From: Calditrichaceae bacterium | Lineage (GTDB): Bacteria > Calditrichota > Calditrichia > Calditrichales > JBFXGD01 | Length of the DNA: 64,000 bases | NCBI GenBank assembly: GCA_050173015.1 | Contig: JBFXLE010000020.1 | Location: forward strand, 16,721 to 80,720 | Direction: 5' to 3' | In this document: one piece after another, positions 43,688 to 64,000 of the stretch | Numbering within the stretch: position 1 is the stretch's first letter | How the letters are laid out: each line of letters starts with the position of its first letter | Translations under genes and position numbers: made by a program | Notes under the pieces: generated by a model | The model's database searches: none | What the model was told of the DNA's origin: nothing | Seen by the model: only the letters and a program-made list of their open reading frames with translations

Positions 43688-43885
43688 CCGGGGCGGGTAC
43701 CTCCGCCCCGGGGAAGGTCACACTCTCCCGGGAAGCGTTACTTTTCAAGAAGAACGCAATAACTCACCTCCGGGGAAGGCGATTAAGGTCCCGGGAAAGG
43801 GTACCGGTTCACCGGGGAGCCTCATATTCTTTCCGGGAAGGGGGCCTCGCCTTCCGGGGAAGGTCACACTCCCGGCGGGAAGGCG
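43688..43885. repeat. 21-bp-phased GC-rich CCGGG(G)AAG repeats
   Basis: Core recurs at about 43688, 43708, 43728, then 43770, 43791, 43812, 43833, 43854, 43875. Confidence 0.7.
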
Positions 43886-43969
43886 CAAAACGTTGACTGA
43901 GCGTGAAAGGGAACCATCAGGCTTGCAAGTGGCATGTTATGCAATGATATTCGATTCAATGTGACGGCC

Positions 43970-45341
43970 TGACGTCGGAGGCGTCACAGCTTAGTAGAAT
44001 GGAGATCACATGGTTATAGTCCGACCCCTGCGGGGTCGCGGGAGGATGTGGTGTCTGCTAATATTCTATTAACGTGTAATCCCTACGGGATTGGAATTAC
44101 CGGTTGCATTGGAAGCCATCAATTAATGATAAATATTGGTCAGGTGATAAAAAACCCGACGCCGGAGGCGTCACAGCTTAGTAGAATGGAGATCACATGG
44201 TTATAGTCCGACCCCTGCGGGGTCGCAGGAGGATGTGGTGTATGCTAATATTCTATTAACGTGTAATCCCTACGGGATTGGGATTGACGGTTGCAGGAAA
44301 AGTCCTGAATTAATGATGACAGTTGGCCATGTGAGATAGAAACCCTGACGCCGGAGGTGTCATATATTTGTAGAATAAGGGTTAAGCGGTAATTGTGCTG
44401 AAATAAATTCAGAATTGACAAAGGCGATTCTTCGGGGCGAATTTTCTGTCCGAGTGTAATAAATTGAAAAACGGATAAATTTAACACGAGTTAAAATTCG
44501 CCAGGGCTTTTTGCTACTTTTTGGCCATTCAAAAAGTAGGAAGAGAGAAGTAGGAACTTTAAGAGTTAAGTGTAGGTGCGACCGCCTGGTCACGGATATC
44601 CATTCCTGAAGTAGAGACGCATGTTGCCGATCATTCTACAAAAATATCATCCCTACGGGATTGGGATTGACGTTTTAATCTAAATAAAGGATGGATGATA
44701 ATGATCGGATTGATATGACATGAAGGCCTGACGCCGGAGGAGTCACAGCTTAGTAGAATGGAGATCACGTGGTTATAGTCCGACCCCTGCGGGGTCGCGG
44801 GAGGATGTGGTGTCTGCTAATATTCTATTAACGTGTAATCCCTTCGGGATTGGGATTGACGGTTGCAGGAAAAGTCCTGAATTAATGATGACAGTTGGCC
44901 ATGTGAGATAGAAACCCTGACGCCGGAGGTGTCATATATTTGTAGAATAAGGATTAAGCGGTAATTGTACGACCCCTATGGGGCCGTGGAATCGCGTGTT
45001 GCCGATCATTCTACAAAAATATCATCCCTACGGGATTGGGATTGACGGTTGCAGGAAAAGTCTTGAATTAATGATGACAGTTGGCCATGTGAGATAGAAA
45101 CCCTGACGCCGGAGGCGTCACAGCTTAGTAGAATGGAGATCACATGGTTATAGTCCGACCCCTGCGGGGTCGCAGGAGGATGTGGTGTCTGCTAATATTC
45201 TATTAACGTGTAATCCCTACGGGATTGGAATTACCGGTTGCATTGGAAGCCATCAATTAATGATAAATATTGGTCATTTGATAAAAAACCCGACGCCGGA
45301 GGTGTCATATATTTGTAGAATAAGGGTTAAGCGGTAATTGT
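43970..45341. repeat. array of seven ~125-bp three-hairpin REP/REPIN-like units (types A and B) joined by recurrent ~62-bp linkers
   Basis: Units start near 43970(A), 44157(A), 44346(B, interrupted), 44729(A), 44918(B), 45104(A), 45291(B, truncated); hairpins TGACGCCGGAGGCGTCA, CGACCCCTGCGGGGTCG, AATCCCTACGGGATT. Confidence 0.9.
44397..44617. repeat. insert interrupting a B unit; first ~145 bp repeated at 45342-45484
   Basis: Both copies begin after AATTGT and contain hairpin CTACTTTTTG-GCCATT-CAAAAAGTAG. Confidence 0.8.
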
Positions 45342-45480
45342 GCTGAAATAAATTCAGAATTGACCAAGGCGATTCTTCGGGGCGAATTTTCTGTCCGAGT
45401 GTAATAAATTGAAAAACGGATAAATTTAACACGAGTTAAAATTCGCCAGGGCTTTTTGCTACTTTTTGGCCATTCAAAAA

Positions 45481-45557
45481 GTAGGGAGGAAGAAAAGTAG
45501 GAAGAGAGAAGTAGGAAGTAAGAACGTTATGAGTTAAGAGTGTGAGAGTTAAGTGTA
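45481..45557 (+). repeat. purine-rich heptamer-like tract (GAAGTAG/GAGTTAA)
   Basis: gaagtaggaagtaagaacgttatgagttaagagtgtgagagttaagtgtaa; reverse-complement version at 63809-63866. Confidence 0.6.
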
Positions 45558-45873
45558 ACATCAAGGAAACCCATGGCTGAAGTCGGAAGAAAGAACAATC
45601 TTTCCCCTGTTCATTTCCCTTGATGGAAAAGAACCAAAAGATCATGGCTGTCCAAAAAAATTGTGAAATTCCACGGCTCGCTGCACTGAAAATCTTAAAC
45701 TCGCCCGCCTCGGGCGGGCTCAGAACATCATAGTTTTGCTCGTTCCGTTCATCTTCTTTTTAGAAATTATCCCGGGCGCGTAACTTTAATTCTCATCCGA
45801 CTATCCCCAAATTTTTGATTTTTATCTGATCTTTTTTATAAATTCATTAAAATTACCAGCCAATTAAATAGGA

Positions 45874-57606: not shown

Positions 57607-57739
57607 ACCTAACGATTAGGCATAACCGGATGAAAACAATGCGGCCAGTAACCTGAAAATTACCACCAAATTTGACCGGAACAATAAATTTAAAAAAACC
57701 GAAACGCGTTTTCATTCCGAGTTGATGCCCGTGTTATGT
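57607..57739 (-). other. attC site (133 bp)
   Basis: Minus strand ACATAAC-acggg-catcaactcggaatgaaaac...gttttcatccggttatgcc-taatc-GTTAGGT. Confidence 0.85.
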
Positions 57740-57761
57740 GCTGATTAATTGCAATTTGGTT

Positions 57762-58472
57762 CTATGAATTTAATCGTTCAATTTCAGCGCGTATTTCTTC
57801 AAGTATATCTTTGTTTCTTATTTGCTTTTTATCATTTATTTTTGAAGAAAATATAATAAACACCCGACCGCCATAAGCTTCTTCGAACTCATCAAAATTT
57901 TGACGCATTCTATCAGATATTGAGTAATTTCCAAAATTAGCGGTGGCAGTTATTGGTTTGATTTGAATTCCAAATGCTTTGTCATTTACATTACCCAAAT
58001 AGTCAATATCACCTGCGTGATCTAATTCTGGGTCAGATTCAGTAAATTTAACATTTGGAAACTCTTTTGCTAATATATCATTTACAACTGATTTTTCAGT
58101 TACAAAGCCGTCATATGTTCTAAAAATTGTTACTTCTCTAATGTAGTCTAAACAATCTTGTTTTGTTATCTGCTTAAATGCCTCAGACCATTCCGGGATG
58201 ACAACTTCTGTAATTTTTTCGTACAGTCTCTCACCTAATTCTGTTAATATTTCCTCGGTAACTTTTATTTCTTTTTTTGTTTTTGTGTAAGCATTTGCCC
58301 AATAATATTCTTGCCATTCATCGAATGATTTTGGTTGGCATTCTCGAATTAGAGCCATAACTTCGCCAACTTTTTTGGGTCTTGTTAGCTGATATGTATT
58401 ACTCGTGTAATTTAGTACCTTTTCTTTTTTCCCGAATGATTTTGCAACTTTTTTGATCTCATCATCTGCCAT
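57762..58472 (-). CDS. type II restriction endonuclease, MjaI-like
   Basis: TRPKKVG; RTYDG...E; ELD...IDY...GIQIKP PD-(D/E)XK; start overlaps MTase stop. Confidence 0.75.
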   Translation of the reverse strand: MADDEIKKVAKSFGKKEKVLNYTSNTYQLTRPKKVGEVMALIRECQPKSFDEWQEYYWANAYTKTKKEIKVTEEILTELGERLYEKITEVVIPEWSEAFKQITKQDCLDYIREVTIFRTYDGFVTEKSVVNDILAKEFPNVKFTESDPELDHAGDIDYLGNVNDKAFGIQIKPITATANFGNYSISDRMRQNFDEFEEAYGGRVFIIFSSKINDKKQIRNKDILEEIRAEIERLNS

Positions 58473-59760
58473 TGTGATTTTCCAATCCGATAAATTTTGA
58501 TTTATATTTATAATTCGTTTCTCTATCTGCAAAAGCATATCCGTTTTTAATTAAGTGGGCATTCATAAATGTTTTATTTTTAAGATATAGATAGCAAAGC
58601 AGATTGTTCTCATTATCGTATTTTACTACATCAAATTTTAAAAATACTTTTTGACTGTCAACTTTTTTCTTAATGAATTCTCGAGCTCTTCCATTTAAGG
58701 TTTCATTCTCTTTAATGCCTAATAAGCGAATCTTAAGACCCGTATTAAGTATTAGTTTCTCTGTGGAAACGATATCTTTAACCTGGTAATATTTTTCATT
58801 ATTTTTTGAGTTATTGTCAATTTTTGAGCCAAACTGAAGCTTTTTAGGATCTATCTTTTTATCTAATAGATGAGAATCTTTAAAGATGTAAGGCAGATTT
58901 TTAATATCTTCTTTAAAGTCATTGTTCATCTTCGTTTGTTGAGTAAATTCATATTTTGTATTTAGCAAGTCTTGTTGGTCAACATTTAGCTTTCTTTTAA
59001 TATAAGGAATGAACTCGGTATTTAATTCGTAGCCTACTGAATTCCTGGATAATTTTTTAGCAGCTAAGCTGGTAGTTCCACTTCCAACAAATGGGTCAAG
59101 TATAGTATCACCAACAAAAGAAAACATTTTTATTAAACGGTGTGGTAACTCTTCCGGAAACATCGCTATATGGCTATCTTGTTTTGCACCGCCAAAATTC
59201 CAATGCCCAGAAAAATATTCTTTCCACTCTTCTTTTGTCATTTTCGATTGTTCTTTTAACTCTTTATTAGGCTTTTTGGGGTTGCCGAGTTTCTTAAATA
59301 GTAGAATAAATTCATAGTCAATAGATAAAATTCCATTTCTCGGATATGGGAAACTACCCATCACGCTGGCGCCACCAGTAGTATTAGTAGTCGTTTTCTT
59401 TTGCCAGATTATTGCCCCCATATAATCAAAACCAACTGTTTCGCAAAATTTAATTATTTCAGTTCGAATTGGAATGACTTTATACCTGCCATAATATACT
59501 GCTCTTGCAAATTGGTCACCTATATTCACACAAAGCCTGCAACCATTGTTTAAAACTCTAAAACTTTCTTTCCAGACTAAATTGAGATTATTTATGTAGT
59601 TTTCGTAGCTATCATTATATCCGATTTGGTCAGCGCTTCCATAATCTTTTAATTGCCAGTATGGTGGTGATGTAATCACTAAATCAATAGAATTGTCTGG
59701 CAATTCGGCCATTCTTCGGCTATCGCCATTTATGATTAAATGTTTTGTTGAGTTTGACAT
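58462..59760 (-). CDS. beta-class N4C/N6A DNA methyltransferase with C-terminal thermonuclease(SNase)-like domain
   Basis: ITSPPY before LDPFVGSGTT; H.AMFPEEL; C-terminal IRLLGI...YD...LLCYLY...N..LIKNGYA. Confidence 0.88.
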   Translation of the reverse strand: MSNSTKHLIINGDSRRMAELPDNSIDLVITSPPYWQLKDYGSADQIGYNDSYENYINNLNLVWKESFRVLNNGCRLCVNIGDQFARAVYYGRYKVIPIRTEIIKFCETVGFDYMGAIIWQKKTTTNTTGGASVMGSFPYPRNGILSIDYEFILLFKKLGNPKKPNKELKEQSKMTKEEWKEYFSGHWNFGGAKQDSHIAMFPEELPHRLIKMFSFVGDTILDPFVGSGTTSLAAKKLSRNSVGYELNTEFIPYIKRKLNVDQQDLLNTKYEFTQQTKMNNDFKEDIKNLPYIFKDSHLLDKKIDPKKLQFGSKIDNNSKNNEKYYQVKDIVSTEKLILNTGLKIRLLGIKENETLNGRAREFIKKKVDSQKVFLKFDVVKYDNENNLLCYLYLKNKTFMNAHLIKNGYAFADRETNYKYKSKFIGLENHNGR

Positions 59761-59855: not shown

Positions 59856-60266
59856 ACATAACATATTGATCAGACGTCCATCTTCATTATCATTTTATTC
59901 TAATATTGGAAAACATTTTCTAAATGTAGAAAACTTATTCTAATGTTAGAAAAAAAATATTTCCAATATCAGAGAAATTAACCGTCGGAAACAGTTCGCC
60001 CCTCAGATCAATGGAATAGTGGCTTTTTAAGACACACCCCGAACCATTTGTTGTTTATATTCTTTAAACCGGCGTGAGATGATATCCAAATCATAATCGT
60101 CCTTGTCTGAACCATCATCAATTGTCTGAGTTTTCAACGATTGAAGCAAAAAAAGGGTTAAATAAAAACGTTATCATAATAATCAATTGAAATGGAAATT
60201 TCAAGAGGCTAATAATTTTCGGATATTTTAGCAAACGGTATAACCCATCCCCAATCCTGAAGGGAT
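59856..60266 (-). other. putative attI + Pc module, copy 1
   Basis: Near-identical to 63110-63527; identity starts at the GTTA core; four 14-bp palindromes; promoter at 60176-60204. Confidence 0.7.
60176..60204 (-). promoter_or_regulatory. putative Pc-like cassette promoter
   Basis: TTGAAA-N17-TATTAT facing the cassettes. Confidence 0.55.
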
Positions 60267-60346
60267 GAGATCTTTCTAAAAAACCGGCCACTCGTCGGTA
60301 TCATTGTGATGATGTTCCCGGGTAAAGGGATTGCGATGGCTGTTTT

Positions 60347-61699
60347 TCATTGTATCCGGTATTGAGTGAGTTCTTCGCTGAAATTCCAGTAGGACTTCTC
60401 TTTTCTCGCTCCACTTTTGTTCACCTGATAGGTAACAATGAGGCTCTTCACGATCCCCACTCCCGGAGCGAACCAGAATGTGGATTCGCGATCCTCGTTC
60501 TCGACTTCCCCGCGCCATTGGGCTGTCATCGAAACGGGCAGGCAGTTAAACTTTCCGGCTGGAACTGAAACCTCCATCTCCGTTCCGACCGAAAATTTTT
60601 CATGAATTCTTGCCTGGTGGGGGCCTACAGGAGTCTGTACATCCGTGATATAGTCATTGGTCCATTGTGTTCCGGATTTCAAATCGTAAGGAAAGTAAAG
60701 TGGCAAGGGACTATTCTCATAGAAATACTCCGACGATGCGGTTTTACCGTCCTTTTTTAGAAAAGCGAAGTAACTTCCCGTTAACATGATCCCTTTGTCT
60801 CCTTTGGTGTAAAATTCACCTGAACGCTCTTTATTCTTTGCGGCTCCTTCAATCTCGTTTAATTCGCGATAATAGGAAAAAGCAGAACCTTGTTTCATGT
60901 TTTTTCCCGGGCCGGCTCTCCGTGTGACCTGGCGGACCATCTCGCGGGAAGTAAAGATTCCCGGAATATTCCCGCGCAAATCGTATACCCAATAGTTACC
61001 TTCGTTAAGAGACCAGAAGACTTCCTTGAACTTGTCTTTAGCTGCTTTGAAGTTGGGATCAAGATCGGTGGCTTTTTTGAGTTCCGCCAATGATCCCTGG
61101 CTGTCCAAACGGACCTGAAGCAGCGCCCCCTGTCCGAAATGTCTGTAAGCCTCGATTGATTCCGTGGGACGTTCCGCGATCTTGTCCAAATCCTGTTCTT
61201 TAAGTTCAATATTGAGTTTGGCCGCGAGTCCCCTGACTATTTCATCCTGAAGATCAAAGATACTATCCATAGGGCCTGTCGCTTTTGAAGATTGTATGAC
61301 AGCGCCCGTTTTTACATCAACAAATCGGGAAGTGAGGCGGATGGTCTCGGCGCTCTTTTGATACGCTCCCAGGACGATTATATCCGCTCCGATCAACTCA
61401 CCCACAGATAAAGCCGTTTTCTCATCTATAAGACCTGTAAGATGCAGACTTTGCTCTTCGAGTATTCTCATGAGTTGAAGGCGTTCTATAACAACTATGC
61501 CCGGTATCGAAAGGAGATCAGTTGTGATGGTTTCGGGAATGCCCAGGGAGAGCCAATCCAGATCCTGATTCTTTCCTACGTTCTCAAAAGGTATAACAGC
61601 CACATTTTGGCTTTTTGCATGGGCACCCGGTACGAATTCCAGGATGACAAGCAGAATGAATATTTTATACATTTTAATTTTTACATCGGACAACTTCAA
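60347..61699 (-). CDS. exported protein with CsgG/FlgO/TolB-N-like domain, TPR and C-terminal beta domain
   Basis: Signal peptide; VAVIPFEN..WLS.GI; IER..L..IL.EQ; VPAGKF...WFAPGVGIVK; TTG start after CAGGAGG. Confidence 0.75.
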   Translation of the reverse strand: MKLSDVKIKMYKIFILLVILEFVPGAHAKSQNVAVIPFENVGKNQDLDWLSLGIPETITTDLLSIPGIVVIERLQLMRILEEQSLHLTGLIDEKTALSVGELIGADIIVLGAYQKSAETIRLTSRFVDVKTGAVIQSSKATGPMDSIFDLQDEIVRGLAAKLNIELKEQDLDKIAERPTESIEAYRHFGQGALLQVRLDSQGSLAELKKATDLDPNFKAAKDKFKEVFWSLNEGNYWVYDLRGNIPGIFTSREMVRQVTRRAGPGKNMKQGSAFSYYRELNEIEGAAKNKERSGEFYTKGDKGIMLTGSYFAFLKKDGKTASSEYFYENSPLPLYFPYDLKSGTQWTNDYITDVQTPVGPHQARIHEKFSVGTEMEVSVPAGKFNCLPVSMTAQWRGEVENEDRESTFWFAPGVGIVKSLIVTYQVNKSGARKEKSYWNFSEELTQYRIQ

Positions 61700-61737: not shown

Positions 61738-61809
61738 GTCGAAGGTCACAAATCAGCCACGAATTCGGAGCGCAGCGGAAAATTTGTCGGCTGCGTTTGC
61801 TTGTTATAT
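61738..61809 (-). other. attC site, degenerate R' (CTT)
   Basis: Minus strand ATATAAC-aagca-aacgcagccg...gtggctgatt-tgtgac-CTTCGAC. Confidence 0.65.
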
Positions 61810-61827: not shown

Positions 61828-62196
61828 TTAAACGAGCAAACGGAACCCGCCATACACCATCCGTTCAGCATCAAAGATCGGCTTCGATGTATGAGTCAGT
61901 GGATTGATCAAATCCGTCATCCTTGGGTCGGCCGCGACTCTTTTATTTGCAAGATCACGTGCCTCACGAGATTCGAATGCGACCCATCCAAAGATTACGG
62001 CTTCATCCTCTTTTGTGTTCGCGACATCAGTGAAAGATCGAGTACCCTCTAAATTTGAATCGTCAATAACATATTCTGAATAATCGAGCGCGCCATGTTC
62101 CTTCCAAATCTTCGCAACCTTTTCTACAACTTCTCTATATGTCTTTAACTGATCGCGCGGCACCGGGAGTATGAACCCGTCGATGTAGTTCGTCAT
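61828..62196 (-). CDS. cassette gene: DUF1428 (YbaA-like) protein
   Basis: YIDGF..PVP; W.EHGAL.Y.E; FD..RM.YGGF. Confidence 0.85.
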   Translation of the reverse strand: MTNYIDGFILPVPRDQLKTYREVVEKVAKIWKEHGALDYSEYVIDDSNLEGTRSFTDVANTKEDEAVIFGWVAFESREARDLANKRVAADPRMTDLINPLTHTSKPIFDAERMVYGGFRLLV

Positions 62197-62234
62197 GTTA
62201 TCCTCCAATCTTGCTACTAAACTTTGTGTTCAAG

Positions 62235-62339
62235 CCGTAACGGTCAATACTTAGCCGCCCGCCAGAATTGGATATTTACCAATGCATTTTACGAAAATCA
62301 TCGTACGCATGTCGTGTCGGCTACAGTATTTTGTTAGCA
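62235..62339 (-). other. attC site
   Basis: Minus strand TGCTAAC-aaaat-actgtagccg...cggctaagtattgacc-GTTACGG. Confidence 0.82.
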
Positions 62340-62354
62340 ACTTTTTGTTACATA

Positions 62355-63068
62355 TTAATGAACCATTCCTAAGCTCAGGGCTAAAAAGCCAAAAGCTCCA
62401 AATATAAAGTGAACAATAATAGCAATTGTAGTATTTTTTCTAATTTGAACAATTGCAGGTAGAATAAAAAAAATAGGAGTAGACGCAAAAATCAAATCTA
62501 AACCCATTGGCAAATGCCAAAGTGCCCACAAAATGCCATGAACAAACCAAGTCCAATGATTATTGAGAAGTTCCTGTCTTGGCTGAATATAGCCTCTCCA
62601 TAAAAATTCTTCACCAAATATGTTGAAAAAAAAGAAAAAAGGCCAAACATATAAAATCCAAAAAAATTCATCATTTAATGGCATGTTTTGAAAGAAAAAA
62701 GGAGTAGCATCAATACCAAATTTCGGCATAAAAATTTTAGCAATAATAAAAGATGTAACTACTAGAAGGAGAAAGGTTGATATAGTCCATAATAAATCTG
62801 ATGGAGAAAGCTTTTTAATCCTCATTCTAGTAAGTAGATCTCTCAATTTATATGAGCCAACATCTCGACCACATAAATATAAAGCTCCAAAAAACATTGG
62901 CATCAAGACAATAATACCAACACTAAGAAAGTAAGTTATTTCAATTGGTAAAATTTGCTGCCTGTTGATAATTGGTATTACGATTTGGGAAGCGAAATAA
63001 TTTAAAATAGTCGGTATGCCAAATAACAATATCAAATCTGGCCACTTAGTCTTTTTTAATTCTTTCAC
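62355..63068 (-). CDS. cassette gene: CPBP/CAAX intramembrane protease (Abi family)
   Basis: GEEFLWRG; WALWH; AIIVH. Confidence 0.88.
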   Translation of the reverse strand: MKELKKTKWPDLILLFGIPTILNYFASQIVIPIINRQQILPIEITYFLSVGIIVLMPMFFGALYLCGRDVGSYKLRDLLTRMRIKKLSPSDLLWTISTFLLLVVTSFIIAKIFMPKFGIDATPFFFQNMPLNDEFFWILYVWPFFFFFNIFGEEFLWRGYIQPRQELLNNHWTWFVHGILWALWHLPMGLDLIFASTPIFFILPAIVQIRKNTTIAIIVHFIFGAFGFLALSLGMVH

Positions 63069-63109: not shown

Positions 63110-63527
63110 TGCTAACATATTGATCAGATGTCCATCTTAATTATCATTTTATTCTGATATTGGAAAACATTTTCTAAATGTAGAAAACTTATTCAAATGT
63201 TAGAAAAGGAAATATTTCCAATATTAGAGAAATTAACCATAGGAAACTATTTGCGCCTCCGATCAATGGAAGGGGGGCATTTTAAGGCACACCCCAAACC
63301 ATACTTTGTTTTTATTCTTTAAACCGGCGTGAGATGATATCCAAATCATAAGCGTCCTTGTCTGAACCATCATCAATTGTCTGCGTTTTCAACGTTTGAA
63401 GCAAAAATAAAAAGGATTAAATAAAAACGCTATCATAGTAAACAAAAGGAATTGAAATTTCAAGAGGCTAATAATTTTCGGATATTTTAGCAAACGATTT
63501 AATCCGTTTCCCCAATCCCGAAGGGAT
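63110..63527 (-). other. putative attI + Pc module, copy 2
   Basis: Near-identical to 59856-60266; core GTTAGCA; promoter TTGAAA-N17-TACTAT at 63435-63463. Confidence 0.7.
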
Positions 63528-63633
63528 TACACGTTAATAAAAAATACAGACCCACATCATCCCGCGACCCCGCAGGGGTCGTAAAATTATGTCCAAATTC
63601 CCGTTCTACAAAGATGTGACGCCGATGGCGTCG
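63511..63633 (-). repeat. inverted copy of the three-hairpin REP unit
   Basis: AATCCCGAAGGGATT-ACACGTTAATA...CGACCCCGCAGGGGTCG...TGACGCCGATGGCGTC, the reverse complement of the 44-45 kb units. Confidence 0.85.
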
Positions 63634-63808
63634 GTCGGCTGATTAAATTGAATTCCCCTCCTGCTAGATTTAGAGAATTCCCGGCGCTGACTGACGCGGA
63701 TTCATCTTTGATTCAATTCATTTATTTTTGTTGTATTTGGTTGAACGGACGGGTGTGTTTTACAGATGATATTTGCATGCCTAGGGCGCCCATATGAGGA
63801 CGCCCCGA

Positions 63809-63866
63809 CTCTTAACTCTTACACTCTTAACTCTTAACGCTCTTAAATTCTTACTTCCTGCTTACG
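63809..63866 (-). repeat. heptamer tract (CTCTTAA)n
   Basis: ctcttaactcttacactcttaactcttaacgctcttaaattcttacttcc. Confidence 0.65.
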
Positions 63867-64000
63867 ACACAAAAACAACCCCCTTAGTCCCCCTTTGGCC
63901 AGGCTGTTGCAAAATCAACTCATGCCAAAGCACTGTTGGGGATTAAAAAGAAATAAAATTTTTCAAGATAACGTATGATTGTTCTTTGACATGAAGTTTT

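Follow-up and report, generated by a model that had tools for sequence, protein, structure and literature searches.

A promoter-attI platform joined to a REPIN-like hairpin in a Calditrichaceae genome: a recombinationally active but partial coupling

The locus analysed here resembles several described systems, each in part. CALINs (Cury et al. 2016, PMC4889954) are, like the arrays considered below, cassettes bounded by attC sites with no intI nearby, and most of them also lack intI pseudogenes. The available part of that study gives four candidate origins for integrase-less arrays, among which the duplication of a Pc-attI platform does not figure. The small arrays described here differ from the CALINs presented there in that each retains a promoter and an attI, and in that the platform itself is multi-copy. 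The co-directional ("reverse") integrons of Treponema (Wu et al. 2013, PMC3607928), in which intI is transcribed toward attI, resemble the source integrons found in relatives of this bacterium (7 of 13 full-length loci), and loss of intI that leaves the cassettes behind has been described for them. In contrast to the Treponema integrons, as far as the accessible text presents them, the relatives' integrons have a small gene encoding a PGTKK motif and palindromes before attI; and where that text has one attI per integron, the genome studied here has 13 matches to an attI profile.

On the repeat side, REPINs or BIMEs and REPtrons (Bertels and Rainey 2011, PMC3116915; Corneloup 2021, PMC8266576) resemble this locus in having an inverted REP pair of ~120 nt, clusters arranged in tandem whose flanks are repeated, and a Y1 HUH gene surrounded by an array. 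Unlike the REPINs in the available portions of these papers, the repeat here has no 5' GTAG before the hairpin and a TAG-ending motif after it, and has an integron platform as a flank. Published TnpA_REP assays report cleavage and strand transfer near REPs (PMC8266576). Integron mobilization units, or MITE-flanked class 1 integrons (Delihas 2011, PMC3184786), likewise combine a non-autonomous repeat with an integrase-defective integron; there, transposase-driven movement of a pair of TIR elements, accompanied by a 5-bp duplication, was shown in vivo, whereas here the repeat is one-sided in 7 of 8 cases, of HUH type, and putatively mobile. A link between a Y1 transposase and the expansion of a family of loci was also proposed for tnpA_REP beside prochlorosin genes (bioRxiv 10.1101/2020.03.09.984088). 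That case concerns genes, not integron sites, and its authors, according to the text available, later saw no strong case either for causation or against it, and the same caution applies here. Among the top-ranked results of a literature search that covered mainly open-access papers, none linked REP or RAYT to attI platforms. The origin of integrase-less cassette arrays is an open question, as is the host role of REP/RAYT systems.

The window is a stretch of 64,000 nt from a Calditrichaceae bacterium (GCA_050173015.1, contig JBFXLE010000020.1, positions 16,721 to 80,720; genome G000). It holds two copies of a module (59859-60270 and 63113-63524), 88% identical over an alignment of 432 nt, which on the minus strand begins with a sigma-70-type promoter and continues through a leader and AT-rich palindromes to a GTTA core. 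The predicted promoters match the consensus: TTGAAA-17-TATTAT in module 1 (60176-60204, minus strand), pointing into array 1, and TTGAAA-17-TACTAT in module 2 (63435-63463, minus strand). The promoter is retained in most copies of the module and is the predicted Pc reading into the cassettes. In module 1, it is followed on the same strand by a noncoding leader (59961-60175), restricted to the genus and devoid of IntI remnants, by repeated AT-rich palindromes (59879-59960) that lie before attI as in the intI-linked integrons of relatives, and by an attI core with a GTTA crossover (59859-59875). The core, palindromes, and leader of module 2 occupy 63113-63434 (minus strand), with the core at 63113-63129. 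By its GTT crossover core and its homology to the attI of intI-bearing integrons, the module is a true attI platform.

Both modules head small cassette arrays on the minus strand. The first cassette of array 1 encodes an N6/N4 methyltransferase and an MjaI-like endonuclease (57762-59760) and is closed by an attC (57620-57741) that folds into a long hairpin and has a core complementary to the crossover. Array 2 has a CAAX/Rce1-like protease gene (62355-63068), the attC of this first cassette (62235-62341), a DUF1428 gene (61828-62208), and a degenerate last attC (61748-61809). The 9 nt that follow the core of module 1 are the exact complement of the attC core of its first cassette. Such exact complementarity between the attI side and the downstream attC core occurs in 7 of 13 attI copies, both window copies included, and two further copies appear near-exact by eye. 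Because these 9 nt complement the downstream attC core, cassettes were integrated at the modules. With attC-like hairpins at 56.2, 57.6, 61.7, and 62.2 kb (identified by eye and folding) and no intI nearby, the window has the two or more attC sites that define a CALIN. No intact intI was found in the genome, where no TIGR02249 match exceeds the cut-off (the assembly is 97.5% complete, in 54 contigs, and could miss the gene), and no attI has an intact intI beside it, as it would in a complete integron. The sister genome (G001) gave no IntI at E<=1e-40, and IntI matches above the TIGR02249 cut-off were present in 21 of the 41 genomes searched.

On the promoter side, both modules end at a hairpin of the REP family that forms an array at 44-45 kb, as the first-pass annotation had claimed, and both ends that it quoted are present in the sequence. 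Its claims that the two REPs are of different subtypes and that the similarity between the modules stops at the hairpin also hold: identity is 95% in the attI and palindromes, 89% in the leader, 84% in the promoter, 92% in the linker, and 93% in the hairpin, then only 57% over the next 40 nt. The linker of module 1 (60205-60252, strand undefined) runs from the -35 box to hairpin 1, is common to six copies in the genome, and makes up most of a patch that differs in two related strains (see below). Hairpin 1 of this copy (60253-60266, plus strand), with one stem mismatch, leads into a truncated B-type body (60267-60291, plus strand) that breaks off ~25 nt past the hairpin. The linker of module 2 (63464-63513, strand undefined) leads into a complete A-type unit (63514-63632, plus strand), a REPIN-like inverted pair with a three-hairpin fold (hairpin 1 at 63514-63527, hairpin 2 at 63565-63581, hairpin 3 at 63618-63632). 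A CsgG/DUF3108-like gene (60347-61699, minus strand) separates array 2 from the REP of copy 1. The REP array of the same family (43960-45300, minus strand) has six copies of hairpin 1 at 44079-45226, on the strand opposite to the module hairpins, four A-type and two B-type, with swapped linkers. Imperfect tandem repeats of ~21 nt adjoin this array (43690-43900); C1 and G001 have comparable tracts next to REP bodies.

Across the 4.34-Mb genome, the family comprises 70 dispersed units at 38 loci. They are multi-copy extragenic palindromes with inverted pairs, as in REPs and REPINs, with CAAT/AAAT-like bases before hairpin 1 in place of the 5' GTAG/GTGG expected at the hairpin foot. Other dispersed repeat modules, made of heptamer tracts and small hairpins, have many copies in G000 and G001 (in the window, 45340-45560 and 63790-63900), and one of them precedes hairpin 1 in 35 of 70 units, more often than any other 5' partner. 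An intact Y1 HUH gene at C5:165018 (154 aa, PF01797 E 3.4e-26; motifs DHVH, WQ, and YILNQEEHH) has hairpin 1, with an almost unchanged 3' motif, on its flanks, as in a REPtron, and 17 REP-profile matches around it. The surrounding locus (C5:163900-166260, L097) has 25 plus 3 hairpin matches and forms an array of ~25 hairpins. The protein's motifs fit TnpA_Y1 subclass 1.2 (Quentin 2018, PMC6006769), which the available part of that classification lists without REPs, whereas the gene here sits in a REP array. At the three further Y1 loci detected in G000, the repeats are different and hairpin 1 has no match, and all four loci detected in G001 lack hairpin 1, though G001 has both the REP family and the linker-REP junction; these counts of loci are lower bounds, since at least one Y1 gene of G000, on C45, escaped the family search. 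That gene (C45:6319-6948) is of a second kind, with a repeated in-frame insert, and lies inside a type I restriction operon.

Profile searches of G000 gave 13 attI ends and 18 promoter ends, or ~20 loci in all. Among the 18 promoter-bearing copies, six have the hairpin at a distance of 46-49 nt from the -35 box and two at 85 nt; the remaining ten have none within 2 kb. The six direct copies have a fixed distance, the same orientation, and a homologous linker (73-87% identity to the nearest copy, shuffled controls giving at most 69%). In the copies without REP, linker remnants did not exceed shuffled controls, with G001 C242 borderline. The linker-REP junction also exists in G001 (C311, 90% over 67 nt). 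A tree with all REP-linked copies as one clade is not rejected (p-AU 0.202, 11 rows), the tree being mostly poorly resolved (2 of its 8 inner branches starred), and these sequences would allow a single origin of the junction, though they do not demonstrate it. At three sites (C4c, C16a, C5d), copies without REP are orthologous between G000 and G001, in a comparison that left out C4a, C7a, C10b, and the window arrays because of contig breaks or absence in G001. Since ten copies lack the hairpin and sites without REP are shared, the platform has spread and persisted without REP too. The idea that the attI module behaves like a REP linker or cargo is right in part. The 46-49 nt linker of the module is one of a few 5' partners of hairpin 1, and exchange takes place there. 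In contrast, only 8 of 18 copies have the REP end that a REP-mobilised cargo element would carry on all or most of its copies, and a lack of that end in other copies is what the first-pass annotation had said would count against its idea.

The expectation that linkers are exchanged at the hairpins of REP arrays was borne out. Among the 239 pairs of REP-family units with linker identity of at least 0.8, the body identity is at most 0.6 in 21; conversely, 147 of the 518 pairs with body identity of at least 0.8 have linkers at most 0.55 identical. On C45, ~11 kb of sequence comprising a module, a cassette, and a type I restriction island is enclosed by two direct repeats of 121 bp (97.5% identity). 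Both repeats end at the foot of hairpin 1; the module linker follows at one and an array linker at the other. This is the only one of the eight REP-linked loci with a repeat-bounded unit on both sides. A gene followed by tandem repeats and a REP body has the module linker in G000 (C1) and an array linker in G001 (C63), the two genes being 71% identical and possibly paralogues. Contigs of two related strains (X2 and X3, from two runs of different studies) bridge into the CsgG-like gene, with 31 differences over 3045 nt in X2 and 23 over 1013 nt in X3. The long contigs of the four runs compared did not extend over array 1. Twelve of the differences among those listed fall in a patch of 58 nt (60190-60247) that ends at the hairpin, and the next among those listed is at 60286. 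Within the patch, 60195-60237 is identical in the window's two modules, which suggests that the patch may reflect conversion between module copies. The pattern in the arrays, at C45, and in the strain patch supports hairpin 1 as an exchange point.

Two further candidates for exchange were rejected. The comparison of G001 C311 with G000 C10:85629 is not a clean swap of 5' partners, as the first G000 hairpin is interrupted by an IS21-like end; this end adjoins the loop of REP hairpin 1 (C10:85380-85450), where it was presumably inserted. A 3.7-kb segment present only in G000 (C5:26030-29770), which holds another REP-linked copy, is bounded by an imperfect direct repeat of ~30 bp, not by the hairpin. 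No short target-site duplication was seen at the module/REP junctions examined. The paired flanks and target-site duplication of an IMU or MITE composite are thus not found, C45 alone being two-sided, with direct repeats.

The coupling of module and REP is real and recombinationally active, but partial. We give a probability of about 0.6 to the reading that it is an inherited junction at which exchange takes place within a system of mosaic repeats. In this scenario, the attI end derives, as its homology shows, from integrons of the phylum with the order intI, small PGTKK gene, palindromes, and attI, and a genus-specific promoter-leader stands in place of intI and the PGTKK gene. Within the genus, the platform multiplied to ~20 copies, which then took up different cassettes, as core complementarity shows, with an IntI presumably active at that time. 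One early copy, or a few, may have acquired a junction with hairpin 1 of the REPIN-like family, located 46-49 nt upstream of the -35 box, and this junction would then have been inherited. Since then, hairpin 1 would have acted as the point where platforms were grafted onto other REP bodies and patches converted between copies, as the observed pattern suggests. The REP would be one route of dispersal and reshuffling, no required end of the element, and would not have deleted intI at its native site. REP-side exchange may be one way in which orphan, integrase-less attI sites spread, the repeat being dispensable, and the genus would offer, beyond the four origins listed in the available part of PMC4889954, a fifth route by duplication of a promoter-attI platform.

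The Y1 protein encoded at C5:165018, whose locus has the matching hairpin, is a candidate exchange enzyme. As a subclass-1.2 HUH protein, it could nick single-stranded DNA at hairpin 1 and transfer strands, grafting Pc-attI platforms, with or without cassettes, as REP cargo onto REP loci chromosome-wide. We regard this as possible but doubtful. Its gene is intact and is the only one of the Y1 loci found in G000 that has this hairpin, the breakpoints fall at the hairpin, and the shared hairpin measures only ~15-20 nt, which is short for RecA. Against it stand the ten copies without hairpin, the absence of the hairpin from all Y1 loci found in G001 despite the REP family and junction there, and the lack of any target duplication or fixed second end at the junctions seen, the 3.7-kb C5 segment having a different repeat at its bounds. 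The same exchange pattern is also explained by conversion or template switching between short palindromes that the copies share. If the protein did graft platforms, a REP/HUH route would seed new integrase-less integrons that IntI could load in trans, and this would be the first case of REPINs with a functional recombination platform as cargo. If the exchange is independent of any such enzyme, the case reduces to the reshuffling of mosaic repeats that happen to carry an integron site. The linker-hairpin junctions, with their mapped exchange points, provide a natural substrate for testing the REP-associated HUH protein.

The platform might instead have been spread by IntI, through excision of attI-ended segments and their reinsertion as attI-type cassettes or at secondary sites, the REP junction being a passive passenger. 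Cassettes delimited by attI, complete or truncated, are substrates of IntI1, according to the available part of PMC12901181, and several modules are paired, the two pointing the same way at 1-4 kb from each other, whether or not a REP is present. However, a transferred cassette should carry common upstream DNA up to a GTT crossover, and none was seen: sister copies share nothing past the hairpin. We judge this route unlikely, less probable than inheritance of the junction or grafting by the Y1 protein.

The origin of the attI end bears on the suggestion of the first-pass annotation that an HUH/REP system may have removed intI. The PGTKK protein was matched in 20 of 86 genomes of the phylum; among its 21 loci outside G000, 18 have an IntI match, 13 of them full-length, with intI co-directional in 7 and divergent in 6. 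In one relative (G003), the order is intI, PGTKK gene, palindromes, and attI, and this stretch aligns with the 3' end of the module (palindromes and core). These alignments make the dispersed module a chimera, with the attI end of an intI/PGTKK-type integron behind ~250 nt of promoter-leader. When 61 genomes were searched with a sequence model (R1), 30 candidates per genome being scored, this promoter-leader had true matches in G000 and G001 alone; three borderline ones (E 6-9e-4) are unlike the modules. The native site in G000 is on C3, beside tRNA-Leu. There, palindromes and attI follow the PGTKK gene without promoter-leader or REP, and intI is a short fragment (assigned by eye) fused to the PGTKK frame. 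The same tRNA-Leu site in G001 has lost still more, also without REP.

An insertion of REP, or a deletion anchored in it, is thus very unlikely to have removed intI and created the platform. It is true that the intI-linked orthologues lack the hairpin, as the annotation had proposed to check (no REP or leader in 22 PGTKK-gene loci and 28 IntI loci searched with the REP profile), and that, upstream of the palindromes, intI and the PGTKK gene have given way to other sequence. However, what adjoins the palindromes is the ~250-nt promoter-leader, not REP, and the fused intI fragment at the native site has neither of them nearby. Because intI was lost there without REP in both genomes of the genus, REP does not appear to be the agent of its removal. 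Two other origins of the module were discarded. Against a 5' remnant of intI, 90 six-frame translations of 15 modules gave no IntI-profile match except in C5b, a co-directional C-terminal integrase fragment. As a region upstream of intI, it had no match in the 600 nt upstream of intI in 23 relatives (best E 0.07), a blank result explained by attI lying downstream of intI in the true orthologues.

Least probable of all is a mere chance adjacency of REP and module, for although the genome is rich in mosaic repeats, the fixed distance, common orientation, and homologous linker of six copies speak against it, and eight independent adjacencies are excluded (P ~2e-13 for at least 8 of 18 within 100 nt, under a noncoding-only null assuming 12% noncoding DNA and treating the copies as independent, which they are not), so that the REP density invoked as a possible refutation does not account for them. 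A single founding adjacency by chance is not rare (P 0.01-0.11) and belongs to the favoured reading.

Further observations concern the platforms and their surroundings. At C5:153467-153880 (L010/L038), the promoter-leader forms a fusion with the final ~45 codons of a co-directional tyrosine recombinase and with a different attachment core, whose first cassette likewise shows core complementarity; the leader thus heads two kinds of platform. The attI-core pattern had no match over genome contigs; a looser one had 24, none with leader or IntI nearby. In metagenomes, the pattern had two matches, one apparently from the same strain (L101) and one due to chance. A tRNA-like gene with an unassignable anticodon lies a few bases after the attI crossover of copy C10b (C10, L096:2486-2582), and Rfam had no match in two loci, including this one. 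In relatives, a GTAC-N4-GTAC-like palindrome just upstream of the divergent type of intI (L051, L055, L058-L060, L070) is what we take to be a candidate LexA box. The PGTKK protein (110-140 aa; C3, L035:1672-2055; in relatives, L185-L205) is encoded between intI, in either orientation, and attI, before the repeated palindromes, and is a candidate accessory factor binding them. It matches no Pfam or NCBIfam family and gave one weak match among viral contigs; an Atlas cluster groups 1235 proteins like it.
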